Program-made: the position numbers and the translations under genes
Assembly (NCBI GenBank): GCA_039621445.1
Contig: CP154954.1
Span: 31,892,012 to 31,956,011 of the forward strand
Origin: Euglena gracilis
Taxonomy: Eukaryota
DNA length: 64,000 nucleotides
Direction: 5' to 3'
In this document: piece by piece, positions 3,301-45,000 of the stretch
Layout: every line of letters starts with the position of its first letter
Numbering within the stretch: position 1 is the first letter of the stretch
Notes under the pieces: generated by a model
The model's database searches: none
The model's input: only the letters and a program-made list of their open reading frames with translations
What the model was told of the DNA's origin: nothing

Positions 3301-3685
3301 TATATGTACATATATACATATACATGTATATATACATACATGGCATAAAATGGAGCCCCCACCCTTAAATGTGGGGTACTGTGGGAGGCTCCACTTTGCG
3401 GAATCACTCCTCCAAGCATGCCGGCGAAACAGTTTCCACGCGCCTGCGGGGGGGGGGTTGGCCACCCAACCCTTTGCCTGCCTGCCCCAGGGCGGTGAGG
3501 AAGCTGACCTGCGGGGAGGAGGGCAGGCTGCCGGAGGCAGGGCGGTACGGGAAGGCTTGGTGGGGGGGGTTGACCCCTGTCAAGGTCTCGGGGCTTCCCG
3601 GACAGCCCTGGCCGGGGGGAAAGCTGGGCGTGGGCTGGGCGCCCTCGCGCTGGACGGGGGTGTTGGCCTGGAGAAGGTTGTCCAT
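346..3685 (-). CDS. Gene C, 5' part (continues beyond window start): Pro-rich N-terminus followed by a P-loop NTPase (AAA_28/TTD14-like 'RIVLTGGPCGG[KT]')
   Basis: Probable ATG at 3685 (MDNLLQANTPV...), 20 nt after a polypyrimidine tract + CAG at 3706-3708. GC-rich exons at 3685-3614, 3532-~3471, ~2942-2810, ~2235-2095, ~605-498 and ~420-346. The last one encodes VLEPEVVEEVPHVFRIVLTGGPCGG and is followed by a GT donor. Several internal junctions are unresolved. Confidence 0.6.
739..1245. mobile_element. MITE-like element with long terminal inverted repeats in a TA-rich site
   Basis: GAGTAAAGTCTCCAG(G)nTCCGTGTAGCATCCCCC (~766-805) is inverted at ~1176-1216. Outer ends GGCAGCAAGA / TCTTGCTACC, flanked by (TA)n. 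Confidence 0.7.
3030..3180. repeat. (TACA)n microsatellite
   Basis: Direct reading; degenerate TA/CA repeats extend over ~2990-3340. Confidence 0.97.
3533..3613 (-). other. Nonconventional intron (81 nt) formed by a 73-bp MITE (3538-3610) plus one TSD copy
   Basis: TIRs CAGGGCGGTACGGGAAG / CTTCCCGGACAGCCCTG; 8-bp flanks GCCGGAGG (3530-37) / GCCGGGGG (3611-18). Junctions C|GGCCAG...CTGCCTCC|G; splicing gives SFPP|GSLPSSPQ. Confidence 0.7.
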
Positions 3686-3705
3686 CGCCCGGCCGAGTGG
3701 AGGGG

Positions 3706-42000: not shown

Positions 42001-45000
42001 AAAAATTGCCAATTTGGGAGTGTTTCGGGGGTCATTTTTGGGGTTCGGATTTTCACCAACACTTCCGGGACTTATACCCCCCCCCCCCCACTCATAAACC
42101 CCCCCTTCGGCCGACCAACCAAACCAGATCCTACTAACCCCGGGGGGTTTATAAGTGGGGGGGGTTAATTGTGGTTTTGTGACCGAAACAATCTGTATTT
42201 TGGAATGGTGGCTACACCAATCGCTGTTGTAACCCCCCCCCCCCAAATAACACCCCCCCCCGGTGTGTTATTTGGGCACCCGAACTGGGGCCCCAGGGGG
42301 GGGGGTGTGTTATTTGGGGGGGTGTTATTTTTACATGGAAAACCAAAGGAAAACAGGGGGGTGTGTTATTTGGGCGCTCGAAATCGGCCCCCGAGGGGGG
42401 GTGTGTTATTTGGGGGGGGGTGTGTTACTTGGGGGGGTGTGTTCTTTGGGGGGGGGTTATTAAGAGGCAAAGCAGTTGGCAAGACAGTTGGGGGCAAGAC
42501 AATTGGTGGGATAACTGTAGACAACGCAACTCATGAACAGATGATGCTTTTTCTTGAGAAAGCCCCTTCAAACATATAATCCAGCACCTCAGGTTTCCTC
42601 AAAACTGGAATAAAAAAAACTGCAAAAAACTGCACGTATGCATTTTTTTTCTTTTCAGAAAAAAAGCTGAAAAAAATTGCAAAAAAACTGCAAAAAACCC
42701 AAAACGTGAAAACTGCAAAAACACTGCAAAAACTGCACGATGCATATTTCCACTTATTCACTCACCCTTCCCGAAACCATCCAAAAATGGGGAAAAAATC
42801 ATTCAGTTTTCCTAGTTAACCCTGCTTCTGGCTGGGGTGGGCTGACCTGACCCCCCAGGGATAGGGCTGGGCAAGGAATTAAATGAGCGGGGAGCGGGGG
42901 GGTCTGGACTCCCCCTCCTCTGTGCAAAAATTGCTGGCGCTTTGTCCCAGAAAACCTTTTAAACTTGAAAAAAGCCCGAAAATTTCGTTTGTTCTAGAGC
43001 CTCCTCGAACGACGTTCGAGGAGGTTCTAGAGCCTCCTTGAACGCCTTTAAAGCACGTTCGAGGAGGCTCTAGAGCCTCCTCGAACGCCTTTAAAGCCCC
43101 CCCTCGAGGGGGGGGGCTTAAAAATGTTCGAGGAGGCTCGAGGTCGAACGTTCGATCTCGAGCCTCTTCCTACGGTTACCACCCCCCCCCCTTCCCGGGC
43201 CAAACACGACCCACCCACTTATTCTGTTTTTGAAACAACAGACCGCCTGCCCACCTTCAGGAACCCACCCTCCCGTCCCCCTCGGGGGTGGGCCAGGCGG
43301 GGGCTCAGCGAATCCAGGGGAGAGGCACAGGGCCTCCGGTTCCGCGCTGTGGCGCTTGGCGACCAGGGCCACTACCTCCTGCAGTGGGAAAGAGGGTCGG
43401 GCCTGCGGGCGGCCGTTCCCTGGGCGGGCCGGGCGGGGCCTCCCTTGGAGGAGTTGGTGTGTTGGCACAAAATGTGCATATTTGTGGCGCGCTGTGCACA
43501 CGCGACACGGTCGTCAGCGAGTTCATCGGCAAAGACAGAACCGCAGGATGATGGTAAAGACACCACACGGCGCTCAAAATGCCTCGATGCCCGAATGCCC
43601 GCCTCGGGATGGTTTGCCTTCCCTTTCCCTGGGATGGGTTTTTGTGTTTTTTTTTGGGTTTGTGTGTGGGGGCTCTCAAAATACCTCCGTCGTGATCTCC
43701 TGCCCTCTGTTTTTGCGGCAGACGTCGTGGCACGCCTCGTAGAGCTCCTGGGCCCGCACCTCCGGTACCTGCGTGAGGTCTGGCGGCGGCTTGAAATACT
43801 GCATGACGCGGGGGTGCCGATGCAGCGGTCGGCGGCGGCCCGTGCCGGGCGATGTGTGTGTTGTGTTGCGTTGTGTTATGTGTTATGTGTGTTATGTGTG
43901 TGTTGAGTGTGTGCGTGTGTTGTGTTGTGTGTGTTGTGTATGGATGATGTGTTGTGTGTGTGTGTGTGAGTGTGAGTGTGTGTGTGAGTGTTCTTCTTCT
44001 TCTTCTTCTTCTTCTGTGAATGCTGTGTGTGCGTGTGTACGTGTGTGTGTGTGTGTGTTGTTGGTGCGTTTGTTGCGTGCATGCGGGTTGAGACCCAACT
44101 AGAGCAGGTGTTAAAAAAAAAAGAAAACATCTCAATACCAACCCTCTTGTGCAAAAAAAAAAGCAGTCACTGCCCGTTGTGCTTGCACTCATTCACAGTC
44201 ACACACCCAGGCGAGAGGCACTGGTTGGGGAGAACCTGTCAGGGAGTTGATGCCGTACCCAGGACGCACCCTGGAGATTAGACCCACTGAGGCCCCGGCC
44301 CGGCTCAAGCCCCAGCTTGCGGAAATTGTCGAACGCCTTCCCGTAAAGGTCCTCGCTCTGCTGGCAGATGTACTCGTGCAGCTCCCACAGCGTGCTGTTC
44401 GCAGGGCGGGGGTTGGCCTCGGCCAGAGAGGCCATGGTTGGGTCCATGGGACACAATGCCGGGGATTGTGGGGGTGACAACTGCCAGAGGGGCGGGTAAC
44501 CTTTGACCCCACCTTTTGGGTGAAACAAACGTCCCCTGTCAACGTTGGCTGCAGTAGCAGTGATTCCATCAAAGTGAAAATTTTCAGCGAATTTGCACTA
44601 TTATTGGCGATTTGGGGATATGGTGCGTTGGGTCTGGTGGCGTGTTTGCGAAGTATGCATCATTGAGGGGGGAAAAGACGGTTCAGTGCCGGAGGTGCAT
44701 GGATTGGTATGACCAATTGCACTCAGAATAATCGAAAAGAAATTATTCCAAACGGGACAGGGGTGGGTCCCATACGGTTGTGCCCTCCCCCTGGTCTGCC
44801 TTGTTGGCCGCCAGGTAGCAATCGACGATCAGGTTGGTGGTCTGTAGGAAGTGCTCCAGGTCTTTCAACGGCTTGACGTACGGCGGTTGCAGAGGAGGCT
44901 GGGAGAGCCATCAAACCAGCCCCCCTTTCTGCAGGGTTTCCCACAAATTCGCGCTAGGGACCCTCAATTCTGATTCGTGATTATTCGTGATTATTCGTGA

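Follow-up and report, generated by a model that had tools for sequence, protein, structure and literature searches.

Where the nonconventional introns of euglenids come from, and how they are removed, has been a question since the 1990s. Such introns make up 71.8% of all introns in Euglena agilis (PMC12501133) and 16,151 of 28,337 in Euglena gracilis (PMC11170887). The idea of a MITE-like origin dates back to 2014, and a 2024 review uses the term TIR for the stem and target-site duplications (TSDs) for the repeats (PMC11282704, Fig. 3D legend). The initial annotation of a 64-kb stretch of E. gracilis DNA (contig CP154954.1, positions 31,892,012 to 31,956,011, the whole of which we refer to as the window) went further, claiming that four segments are at once MITEs and nonconventional introns and that the 3 and 5 nucleotides left unpaired at the intron ends add up to an 8-bp TSD. 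Is a nonconventional intron, then, an inserted element plus one copy of its TSD? We put the probability that insertions of elements with 8-bp TSDs become nonconventional introns through cuts at these 3- and 5-nt offsets at roughly 0.6. The annotation was right that a MITE origin had already been suggested in general terms, and the relation 8 = 3 + 5 is a plausible refinement of that known hypothesis. The accessible main texts of the euglenid intron papers give neither this relation nor a superfamily name such as hAT, and they do not describe copies of such families that lie outside genes and have 8-bp duplications.

Inverted-end elements and their 8-base flanking repeats

Eleven non-coding elements with inverted ends (TIRs) were found in the window, ranging in size from 62 to 2020 bp and having CAG- or CAA-type starts at 10 of the 11 left ends. 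Direct repeats of 8 bases, matching at 7/8 or 8/8, flank eight of them, and a ninth (38064-38329) has 8/8 flanks only when one base of a G run is counted as part of the element. The elements are short and without coding capacity (499 open reading frames [ORFs] of at least 75 amino acids were scanned), and they combine TIRs with TSDs as MITEs do, which bears out the annotation's claim that MITEs with CAG(G) or CAA ends and 8-bp TSDs occur here. The four segments that it singled out share this anatomy, each with inverted ends and 7/8 to 8/8 flanks. The elements and the introns predicted from these four are as follows.

3538-3610 (span 3530..3618): element of 73 bp; ends CAGGGC../..GCCCTG; TIR 10/12; flanks GCCGGAGG/GCCGGGGG, 7/8, at 3530-3537 and 3611-3618
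3533-3613, minus strand (span 3530..3618): predicted nonconventional intron of 81 nt, in frame and stop-free
10565-10626 (span 10557..10634): element of 62 bp; ends CAA..TTG; TIR 10/12; flanks CCCAGCGC on both sides, 8/8
10560-10629, minus strand: predicted intron of 70 nt, whose retention would shift the frame
16742-16996 (span 16734..17004): element of 255 bp, in non-coding flanks; ends CAGGGAGTTTTTTTTTTTAAGACC.. / ..CAACTCCTG; flanks GTAGTCAT, 8/8
17648-17987 (span 17640..17995): element of 340 bp; weak TIR, 8/11; flanks AGCGGCGG/AGCGGTGG, 7/8
17643-17990, minus strand: predicted intron of 348 nt
18597-19034 (span 18589..19042): element of 438 bp; perfect 16-nt TIR CAGGGGTTTTCTTAAG (12/12); flanks CCCGCAGG/CCCGTAGG, 7/8
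18592-19037, minus strand: predicted intron of 446 nt
28552-30571 (span 28544..30579): element of 2020 bp; TIR CAAGCACCTCTG, 12/12; flanks GTGACGGG, 8/8
38064-38329 (span 38056..38337): element of about 266 bp, same family as 16742-16996; flanks GGGGGGTC, with the G-run ambiguity (otherwise 6/8)
38508-39850 (span 38500..39858): element of 1343 bp, second copy of the CAAGCACCTCTG family; flanks 4/8
40156-40362 (span 40148..40370): element of 207 bp; perfect 16-nt TIR CAGGCTTCTTTTTAAG; flanks 5/8, G run
48184-49620 (span 48176..49628): element of 1437 bp, in non-coding flanks; ends CAGGCACC..; flanks GCCACGGT/GTCACGGT, 7/8
49693-50319 (span 49685..50327): element of 627 bp, in non-coding flanks; start CAGGCTATTGCTTAAGGACC.., TIR 11/12; flanks GTCTGGCC/ATCTGGCC, 7/8

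Ends of the form CAGG..TTT(C)TTAAG(G)ACC are common to the elements starting at 16742, 18597, 38064, 40156, and 49693 (five copies in 64 kb), and ends of the form CA[AG]GCACCT to those starting at 28552, 38508, and 48184 (three copies). Such recurrence of related ends is the pattern expected of transposon families. Repeats of 7/8 to 8/8 also flank the copies at 16742, 48184, and 49693 in non-coding DNA, which suggests that the insertions took place in the DNA itself. The interior of the largest element, 28552-30571, is filled with tandem repeats, and its only coding-like flank is the downstream one on the minus strand. Element 40156-40362 lies between two minus-strand exons and is out of frame with both, so it is probably contained in a larger intron. 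The last two elements (48184-49620 and 49693-50319) lie beyond the range of 3530-44796 covered by the initial annotation. Inverted-repeat listings of the window are dominated by a 43-nt palindromic tandem array and poly-G/C runs. No Rfam families were found in the window, and two pattern scans of metagenomes for further copies gave 0 matches and 120 single chance matches, respectively.

We compared the flanks of 514 candidate pairs of ends with a TIR of at least 10/12 and a start of CAG, CAA, CGG, or TAG. Flanks matched at 7/8 or better in the exact register in 5 of these pairs, compared to means of 0.58 across 48 shifted registers and 0.15 across 60 Markov simulations (maximum, 3 in both). 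There was no excess when the TIR was relaxed to at least 9/12 (7 versus a mean of 2.83; maximum, 8) or at least 8/12 (27 versus a mean of 23.3) or when ends of arbitrary sequence were taken (24 versus 16 to 23). When repeat lengths of 2 to 12 were tried, only length 8 gave a match, the elements having been chosen on that length. At stringent settings, the excess of flank repeats is specific to length 8 and to CAG-type ends. Selection preserves repeats within exons, which biases detection towards exonic copies.

Coding context and splicing code of the four predicted introns

Exons in the window have a third-position G/C content (GC3) of 0.90 to 1.00 and are therefore callable from sequence. By GC3, all four named elements (3538-3610, 10565-10626, 17648-17987, and 18597-19034) lie within minus-strand coding sequence. 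Once the element and 8 nt are removed, the best GC3 frame is identical on both 90-nt flanks of each, with upstream/downstream values of 0.87/0.87 for 3538-3610, 0.84/0.93 for 17648-17987, and 0.74/0.90 for 18597-19034; at 10565-10626 (1.00/0.97), the frame is continuous only with this removal. At a GC3 threshold of 0.74, which was chosen post hoc with the data already seen, coding-like flanks in one frame are found at exactly these four elements, and the pattern is lost when 6, 7, 9, or 10 nt are removed along with the element. Random sites have such a coding context in 501 of 9,086 cases (5.5%), which gives a P(≥4 of 9) of 0.0009 and a P(≥4 of 11) of 0.0022. With 4 of 11 elements in coding context against this background, the elements are therefore not depleted from exons. 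The annotation's arithmetic, by which cutting between nucleotides 5 and 6 of each TSD copy removes the element and one TSD, is sound, and the frame is restored in all four cases.

Insertions that merely break genes would give the same flank pattern. Predicted intron 3533-3613 could stay in the mRNA harmlessly, since its 81 nt are in frame and stop-free with a GC3 of 0.89. ORF continuity after excision was considered as a test and set aside as uninformative because both strands stay open in GC-rich DNA. Word-index searches for protein homologues spanning the junctions found none with 17993-18589 (minus strand) at near and longer lengths; this 199-amino-acid query turned out to be mostly intron by GC3. 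The same kind of search with 22909-23427 (minus strand) at longer lengths found no homologues, and a HMMER search with 10253-10567 (minus strand) gave a single low-complexity match (E = 4e-6).

The offsets of 3 and 5 nt that the annotation ascribed to nonconventional introns, and the motif itself, rest on published experiments. In these experiments (PMC12501133), the donor required a spacer of exactly 3 nt, the acceptor worked best with 5 nt and tolerated one more, and the tested code (at the 5' end, a 3-nt spacer and CDG; at the 3' end, CH'G and a spacer of 5(-6) nt) sufficed for the splicing of knocked-in natural and synthetic introns. An acceptor spacer of 6 nt, at the upper end of the published 5 to 6 nt, would bring the sum to 9, not 8. 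The consensus reported for E. gracilis, CCAGG at +3..+7 and CCTG at -9..-6 (PMC11170887), equals the element ends in the window.

Our predicted introns resemble euglenid nonconventional introns in having non-GT-AG ends, a terminal stem that runs from +4 to -6 and in two of the four has the usual CAG/CTG, a purine at the first downstream exon base, and the short direct repeats often seen where such introns join their exons (Milanowski et al. 2014, 2016; PMC12501133; PMC11170887). Read on the minus strand, their ends are GG..CC, GG..CT, GC..CC, and GG..GC, none of them GT/GC-AG. The entire published code, N3-CAG...CTG-N5 followed by R, is present in two of the four (3533-3613 and 18592-19037). 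It does not extend to 10560-10629, whose CAA/TTG is outside the tested motif set, or to 17643-17990, whose CAG/CGG has a broken middle pair (8/11 positions paired) and is outside the tested code. Pairing continues past the motif in all four (TIR of 10/12, 10/12, 8/11, and 12/12, the last with 16 perfect positions), and the predicted folds of 3533-3613 (-35.7 kcal/mol; z, -2.69) and 10560-10629 (-46.4 kcal/mol; z, -2.59) have a terminal stem. The first downstream exon base is a purine (G) in 4/4 when read on the minus strand and a purine in 2/4 on the plus strand.

Element insertion as a proposed source of nonconventional introns

In the mechanism that we propose, several families of non-autonomous cut-and-paste DNA elements, with an 8-bp target duplication and short inverted CAG(G) or CAA ends, would have supplied copies of which four landed in coding exons of minus-strand genes. 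The nonconventional pathway, which recognizes a terminal stem starting CAG/CTG, would cut outside the stem, 3 nt before its 5' arm and 5 nt past its 3' arm. Excision would then take out the element with 3 + 5 = 8 flanking nucleotides, exactly one copy of the duplication, and the mRNA would again read as before the insertion, whichever strand is transcribed. Insertions of this kind would therefore be neutral and could persist as new nonconventional introns. We infer both the splicing of the four named segments and a class-wide origin of nonconventional introns by this route. A bolder reading, which we hold only tentatively and would not bet on, is that nonconventional splicing in euglenids amounts to a system for excising a single transposon class from RNA. 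Each copy of the 8-bp duplication would then be cut after its fifth base, so that the mRNA is repaired without a scar. The excised circular intron RNA would consist of the element joined end to end through an intact target site, and the pyrimidine-purine consensus reported at both junctions would correspond to the fifth and sixth bases of the target that was duplicated.

The published 'MITE-like origin' is qualitative, and 8 = 3 + 5 makes a quantitative prediction. If element insertion is the source, a register-specific 8-nt junction repeat should decay with intron age, introns and intergenic elements should have ends in common, and empty alleles should differ by the element plus 8 nt. It would also account for common junction repeats ('slidable' introns), for one consensus at both junctions, and for the tolerance of exonic insertions. 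If so, the exclusion of slidable introns before motif derivation in the 2025 study (PMC12501133) would have discarded the youngest and most informative introns.

A small but real chance remains with a different order of events, in which the splicing geometry is older and selects among transposons. If an RNA excision system that measures stems and cuts at -3/+5 was already in place, only families with 8-bp duplications and CAG..CTG ends would be harmless in genes; these would accumulate in exons and dominate introns, and the 3+5 consensus would not be a transposon imprint. The machinery requires no transposon feature except the stem, since synthetic introns of 50 bp were spliced even though their spacers were arbitrary and their junctions had no repeat (PMC12501133); nonconventional introns reported in diplonemids have different, G/C-rich ends (PMC12621601). 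Of the asymmetric consensus, which the annotation read as a hAT imprint, an 8-bp duplication would explain only the sum of 3 and 5 and not the asymmetry, since any split a + b = 8 would heal the mRNA. However, an older geometry predicts the same as element insertion for all measurements in the window, and it does not account for the origin of the machinery.

We consider it rather unlikely that the four exonic copies are unspliced insertions, either gene disrupting or tolerated in frame, and that 3 + 5 = 8 is a coincidence. The tested CDG/CH'G motif is missing from two of the four, the insert of 81 nt keeps the frame open, and the repeat signal is lost in noise at looser thresholds. Disruptive insertions, however, should be depleted from coding context, where we find 4 of 11 elements against a 5.5% background, and two copies have every element of the code described as sufficient for splicing (PMC12501133). 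Moreover, a spliced and recently gained nonconventional intron, that of E. agilis gapC, has 'eight nucleotide direct repeats' at its junction (PMC4770533). The interpretation given there by the authors, double-strand-break repair (Milanowski et al. 2016), would make the 8-nt repeats scars at staggered breaks and not transposase products, and although no transposase occurs among the 499 window ORFs, we find this very improbable for families of inserts that share inverted ends in coding and non-coding DNA and whose constant repeat length adjoining the same kind of terminus is a transposase signature.

Superfamily, related systems, and other introns of the window

The annotation called the elements hAT. 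None of the 499 ORFs of at least 75 amino acids in the window has a transposase domain, Pfam matches coming only from a tandem repeat, and the assignment is therefore unsupported; by their ends and duplication length, the elements look like hAT, and any superfamily assignment is putative. Ends beginning with CAG are known from the hAT elements Ac, hobo, Hermes, and Tip100, and the hAT terminal consensus is 5'-YARNG. In the window, YAR (CAG or CAA) is found at 10 of 11 left ends and the fifth-base G solely in CAGGG-type ends, whereas CAGGC, CAAGC, and CAAAC ends depart from the consensus. hAT elements have 8-bp TSDs and short TIRs of 10 to 25 bp (PMC3942097). The window elements resemble hAT MITEs in their 8-bp TSDs, short TIRs (about 11 to 17 nt of near-perfect complementarity), and CAG starts, and they differ in missing the weak hAT target consensus and in having the fifth-base G in some families only. 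Merlin, the sole DNA-transposon superfamily that we found described for E. gracilis, shares the 8-bp TSD, but every Merlin TIR starts 5'-GG (PMC8101967). Membership in Merlin was ruled out, as the window elements start with CAG, CAA, or CCG and none with GG.

A hAT element is able to act as an intron: maize Ds is said to be spliced out of transcripts, reportedly in work by Giroux et al. in 1994. Splicing of Ds is spliceosomal and imprecise. Introners (in Micromonas, Aureococcus, and others) likewise turn into introns when they insert: they are DNA transposons of the non-autonomous kind, bearing TIRs and TSDs, with the TSD providing part of the splice signal and excision restoring the coding sequence (PMC11282704). 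Their removal is spliceosomal, at GT/GC-AG sites, and their TSDs measure 3 bp or similar (PMC11282704), whereas the window elements would undergo a stem-measuring nonconventional removal in which both cuts split the 8-bp TSD into 5 and 3. Introner-type removal was rejected, with 0/4 predicted introns having GT/GC-AG ends. The MITE-derived introns of Fritillaria borealis and Amoebophrya resemble the present case in their mass gain of non-GT-AG introns, TIRs, and TSDs; an adapted spliceosome is presumed to excise them, and their TSDs measure 3 to 5 nt (PMC11282704).

As an indirect gauge of the roughly 16 non-GT-AG introns counted in the annotation, among 40 gaps between exon blocks in the window, 13 are without a frame-compatible GT/GC-AG pair at a tolerance of ±21 nt and 19 at ±12 nt. 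Between exon blocks, 39 other frame-compatible strong-stem candidates, including many homopolymer artefacts, had 0 to 5 of 8 junction matches, near chance. The four named introns are absent from this list because of the block definition. Chance alone would give one 10/10 stem in each gap between exon blocks, and when stems and frames were used to predict nonconventional introns de novo, the result was swamped by chance solutions.

One further candidate intron lies in the following gene.

22409..23346, minus strand: sacsin-like gene; exon piece A 23212-23346, exon piece B 22409-22528

A search of PDB sequences with exon piece B matched no solved structure, and Pfam mapping found no additional sacsin exons. 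The exon pieces match positions 2-34 and 36-71 of profile NF047352 and positions 76-110 of PF25794, and the GC3 of pieces A and B is 1.00 and 0.97, respectively. The intron between them (about 695 nt, 23211-22517) is slidable by 3 nt and non-GT-AG in every register, and its junction repeat is 3/8. This predicted non-GT-AG intron is supported by the adjacency of the two pieces on the protein profile.

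Inverted-end elements with 8-nt flanking repeats

We scanned the window for inverted ends beginning CAG, CAA, CGG, or TAG, complementary at 10 or more of 12 positions and lying outside tandem repeats. Among the 514 resulting candidate pairs, five carry 8-nt flanks in the exact register that are identical at 7 or more positions. At the same terminal inverted repeat (TIR) threshold, 48 other outward-offset combinations yielded a mean of 0.58 such pairs (maximum, 3), and 60 block-wise Markov simulations yielded a mean of 0.15 (maximum, 3). Requiring at least 11 of 12 positions left three pairs with matching flanks versus a mean of 0.19; at 9 or more of 12, no clear excess was seen (7 versus a mean of 2.83, maximum 8). 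Arbitrary end sequences showed no excess of flank repeats (24 versus 16 to 23), and a looser scan recovered noise alone (27 versus 23.3). The signal is real, yet it is carried by a handful of good elements. Among repeat lengths of 2 to 12, these elements match at 8 alone; since they were preselected on that length, the fair comparison is with the offset grid. Further copies were recovered through family resemblance, for a total of 11 elements.

Elements with inverted ends and their 8-nt flanks
3538-3610, 73 bp, flanks 7/8; within minus-strand predicted intron 3533-3613
10565-10626, 62 bp, flanks 8/8; within minus-strand predicted intron 10560-10629
16742-16996, 255 bp, flanks 8/8
17648-17987, 340 bp, flanks 7/8, weak TIR; within minus-strand predicted intron 17643-17990
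18597-19034, 438 bp, flanks 7/8; within minus-strand predicted intron 18592-19037
28552-30571, 2020 bp, flanks 8/8
38064-38329, about 266 bp, flanks 8/8 or 6/8 depending on assignment of a G run
38508-39850, 1343 bp, flanks 4/8
40156-40362, 207 bp, flanks 5/8, G run
48184-49620, 1437 bp, flanks 7/8
49693-50319, 627 bp, flanks 7/8

The initial annotation had singled out the four elements within predicted nonconventional introns, and the anatomy it described, inverted ends with 8-nt flanks, is present in all four. The ends CAGG..TTT(C)TTAAG(G)ACC..GGGG occur five times among the elements and CA[AG]GCACCT three times, and the 73-bp family (3538-3610) has a solo end at 6356-6372. In each of its subterminal regions, the 2020-bp element carries arrays of the 10-mer GCCCAGCATC in one orientation (28581-28663 and 30425-30557); its interior holds further tandem arrays with units of 10 to 31 nt, and the same repeats recur in its relative at 38508-39850. 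A degenerate relative of 18597-19034 lies at 9669-10180 (82 to 96% identity over pieces of 27 to 118 nt), within an intron between exon blocks (end near 10253, start near 9482) and without a matching flank repeat. It looks like an older nested copy.

Assignment of the elements to hAT, as originally proposed, is putative but reasonable judged by their ends and duplication length, as hAT transposons have TIRs of 10 to 25 bp and target site duplications (TSDs) of 8 bp (PMC3942097). However, among 499 of the window's 538 open reading frames of at least 75 aa (39 of low complexity were removed beforehand), Pfam searches returned no real family, the sole hits stemming from a tandem repeat. Merlin elements of E. 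gracilis share the 8-bp duplication, but have TIRs that start with GG (PMC8101967). DNA elements make up 4.6% of the E. gracilis genome and unclassified repeats 32.7%, with superfamilies not listed in the part of that report covered here (PMC11252322).

Coding context of the four elements in predicted introns

The 64-kb window has a G+C content of 47 to 66%, abounds in G/C homopolymers and microsatellites, and has no Rfam match anywhere. Its features are consistent with nuclear DNA of the Euglena type. Third-position G+C (GC3) reaches approximately 90 to 100% in exons versus approximately 58% elsewhere, so that exons and their frames can be called ab initio. Log-odds blocks cover 2,682 minus-strand and 946 plus-strand codons, the latter largely antisense shadows; the coding signal is almost entirely on the minus strand. 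The sole recognizable gene is a sacsin-like ATPase (19650-25250, minus strand), of which two exon pieces were matched to profiles.

Sacsin-like exon pieces
23212-23346, minus strand, exon piece A: NCBIfam NF047352 profile positions 2-34, E = 0.0047
22409-22528, minus strand, exon piece B: NF047352 positions 36-71, E = 4e-9; Pfam SACS positions 76-110

Their GC3 values are 100% and 97%, respectively, and those of two further protein-like exons are 94% and 90%. High GC3 runs 66 nt beyond the homology-based end of piece A (19 of 22 codons). The intron after piece B is likely a conventional GT..AG intron, CTG/GTGTGAGC ... CAG/GTGACG (slashes mark junctions).

We removed each of the 11 elements together with one 8-mer and calculated GC3 in three frames over 90 nt on each side. 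A single frame was coding-like on both flanks for the four elements within predicted introns and for no others, bearing out their proposed exonic position; upstream/downstream values were 0.87/0.87 (3538-3610), 1.00/0.97 (10565-10626), 0.84/0.93 (17648-17987), and 0.74/0.90 (18597-19034). Flanks of the other seven are noncoding, except for one coding flank at 28552-30571. Removing 6, 7, 9, or 10 extra bases instead of 8 made the four fail, a comparison that resolves length modulo 3 only and carries a one-in-three chance pass per element. At the lowest threshold seen, 501 of 9,086 random sites (5.5%) passed; against this background, four or more passes have a probability of 0.0009 among 9 elements and 0.0022 among 11, with a GC3 threshold picked post hoc and with detection biased toward exonic copies, whose repeats are partly sheltered from mutation. 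Coding sequence is clearly not closed to these elements, contrary to the expectation for disruptive insertions. Retaining 10560-10629 (70 nt) or 18592-19037 (446 nt) would put the downstream exon out of frame; 3533-3613 (81 nt) is open, with high GC3 of its own.

Duplication length and the nonconventional splicing code

The reading we prefer, with a probability of roughly 0.6, is that elements duplicating 8 bp sit in exons and are predicted to be removed, together with one duplicate, as nonconventional introns cut at offsets of 3 and 5 nt. Published experiments define the splicing code as N3-CDG...CH'G-N5-6/R: a one-base departure from the 3-nt donor spacer destroys function, an acceptor spacer of 5 nt is optimal with one more tolerated, a purine is favored as the first exon base, and wholly synthetic 50-bp introns made to this code are spliced (PMC12501133). 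On the minus strand, all four predicted introns have stems from +4 and G as the first exon base; 3533-3613 and 18592-19037 follow the whole code, whereas the trinucleotide departs from it in 10560-10629 and 17643-17990. The E. gracilis consensus, CCAGG at +3 to +7 and CCTG at -9 to -6, gives the same CAGG/CCTG ends as most elements in the window, and the ends of 11,653 of 16,151 nonconventional introns were undeterminable in that study (PMC11170887). The earlier equation of 3 + 5 with the duplication length is arithmetically exact and agrees with the published experiments, but it accounts for the offsets as a sum and not for their asymmetry.

A MITE-like origin of euglenid nonconventional introns was proposed in 2014 (PMC3935182). 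"Frequent direct repeats" at such introns were reported in 2016, along with "eight nucleotide direct repeats" at a recently gained, strain-specific gapC intron, which those authors attributed to break repair (PMC4770533). A 2024 review equated the CAG/CTG stem with a TIR and junction repeats with TSDs, giving neither length nor superfamily in the portion covered (PMC11282704). A 2025 PNAS study suggested that the splicing machinery may mitigate transposon insertions; introns bearing junction repeats, termed "slidable" and making up 84.4% of all introns, were excluded there before motifs were derived (PMC12501133). The article texts covered contained neither the 3 + 5 relation nor a hAT assignment, and the former is apparently absent from print so far.

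Other introns and repeats of the window

Between 3 and 46 kb, 13 of 40 minus-strand gaps between exon blocks have no frame-compatible GT/GC-AG bridge within 21 nt of the block ends, or 19 of 40 within 12 nt. As totals only, these numbers agree with the roughly 16 non-GT-AG introns of the initial annotation. The intron between sacsin pieces A and B (23211-22517) lacks GT-AG ends in each of its four possible registers and has a short stem from +4/-6, with junction 8-mers matching at 3 of 8 positions. Searching beside exon blocks for strong frame-compatible stems, with a 5-nt spacer and at least 9 Watson-Crick pairs over 12 positions, gave 39 rows, many of them homopolymer artifacts, with junction identities of 0 to 5 of 8; the four predicted introns are missing from these rows owing to the block definition. 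The junction repeat is therefore found only in those four. This fits decay of the repeat in older introns; equally, it means that the repeat is not general across this intron sample.

A candidate nonconventional intron on the minus strand at 40099-40435, GGC/CAGGGCTCGG ... GGACCCTG/CGGAC followed by G (junction 8-mers 3/8), would enclose the 207-bp element 40156-40362 as an element nested in an older intron. A 43-nt palindromic unit (GTCGTTCGAGGAGGATCAAAATCCTCCTCGAA..) forms arrays at 32540-32982, 34361-34758, 36089-36198, 40873-41015, and 42993-43097, which may constitute a separate repeat or element family; two of them bracket a 404-bp repeat (1.9 copies, 33511-34265), and shorter related copies occur elsewhere. 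A 1.5-kb structure at 52908-54411 has a 118-bp tandem array enclosed by inverted arms of approximately 175 nt that are 88% identical; its arms run into flanking poly-G/C, and no flank repeats of 2 to 11 bp were seen. Inverted-repeat pairs at 766-1215 (47 nt, 94%) and 41057-41375 (67 nt, 93%) likewise have no flank repeats of 2 to 11 bp. The latter starts with TGAGTGGCCCAGTGGTAGAAC, a sequence of tRNA-like appearance.
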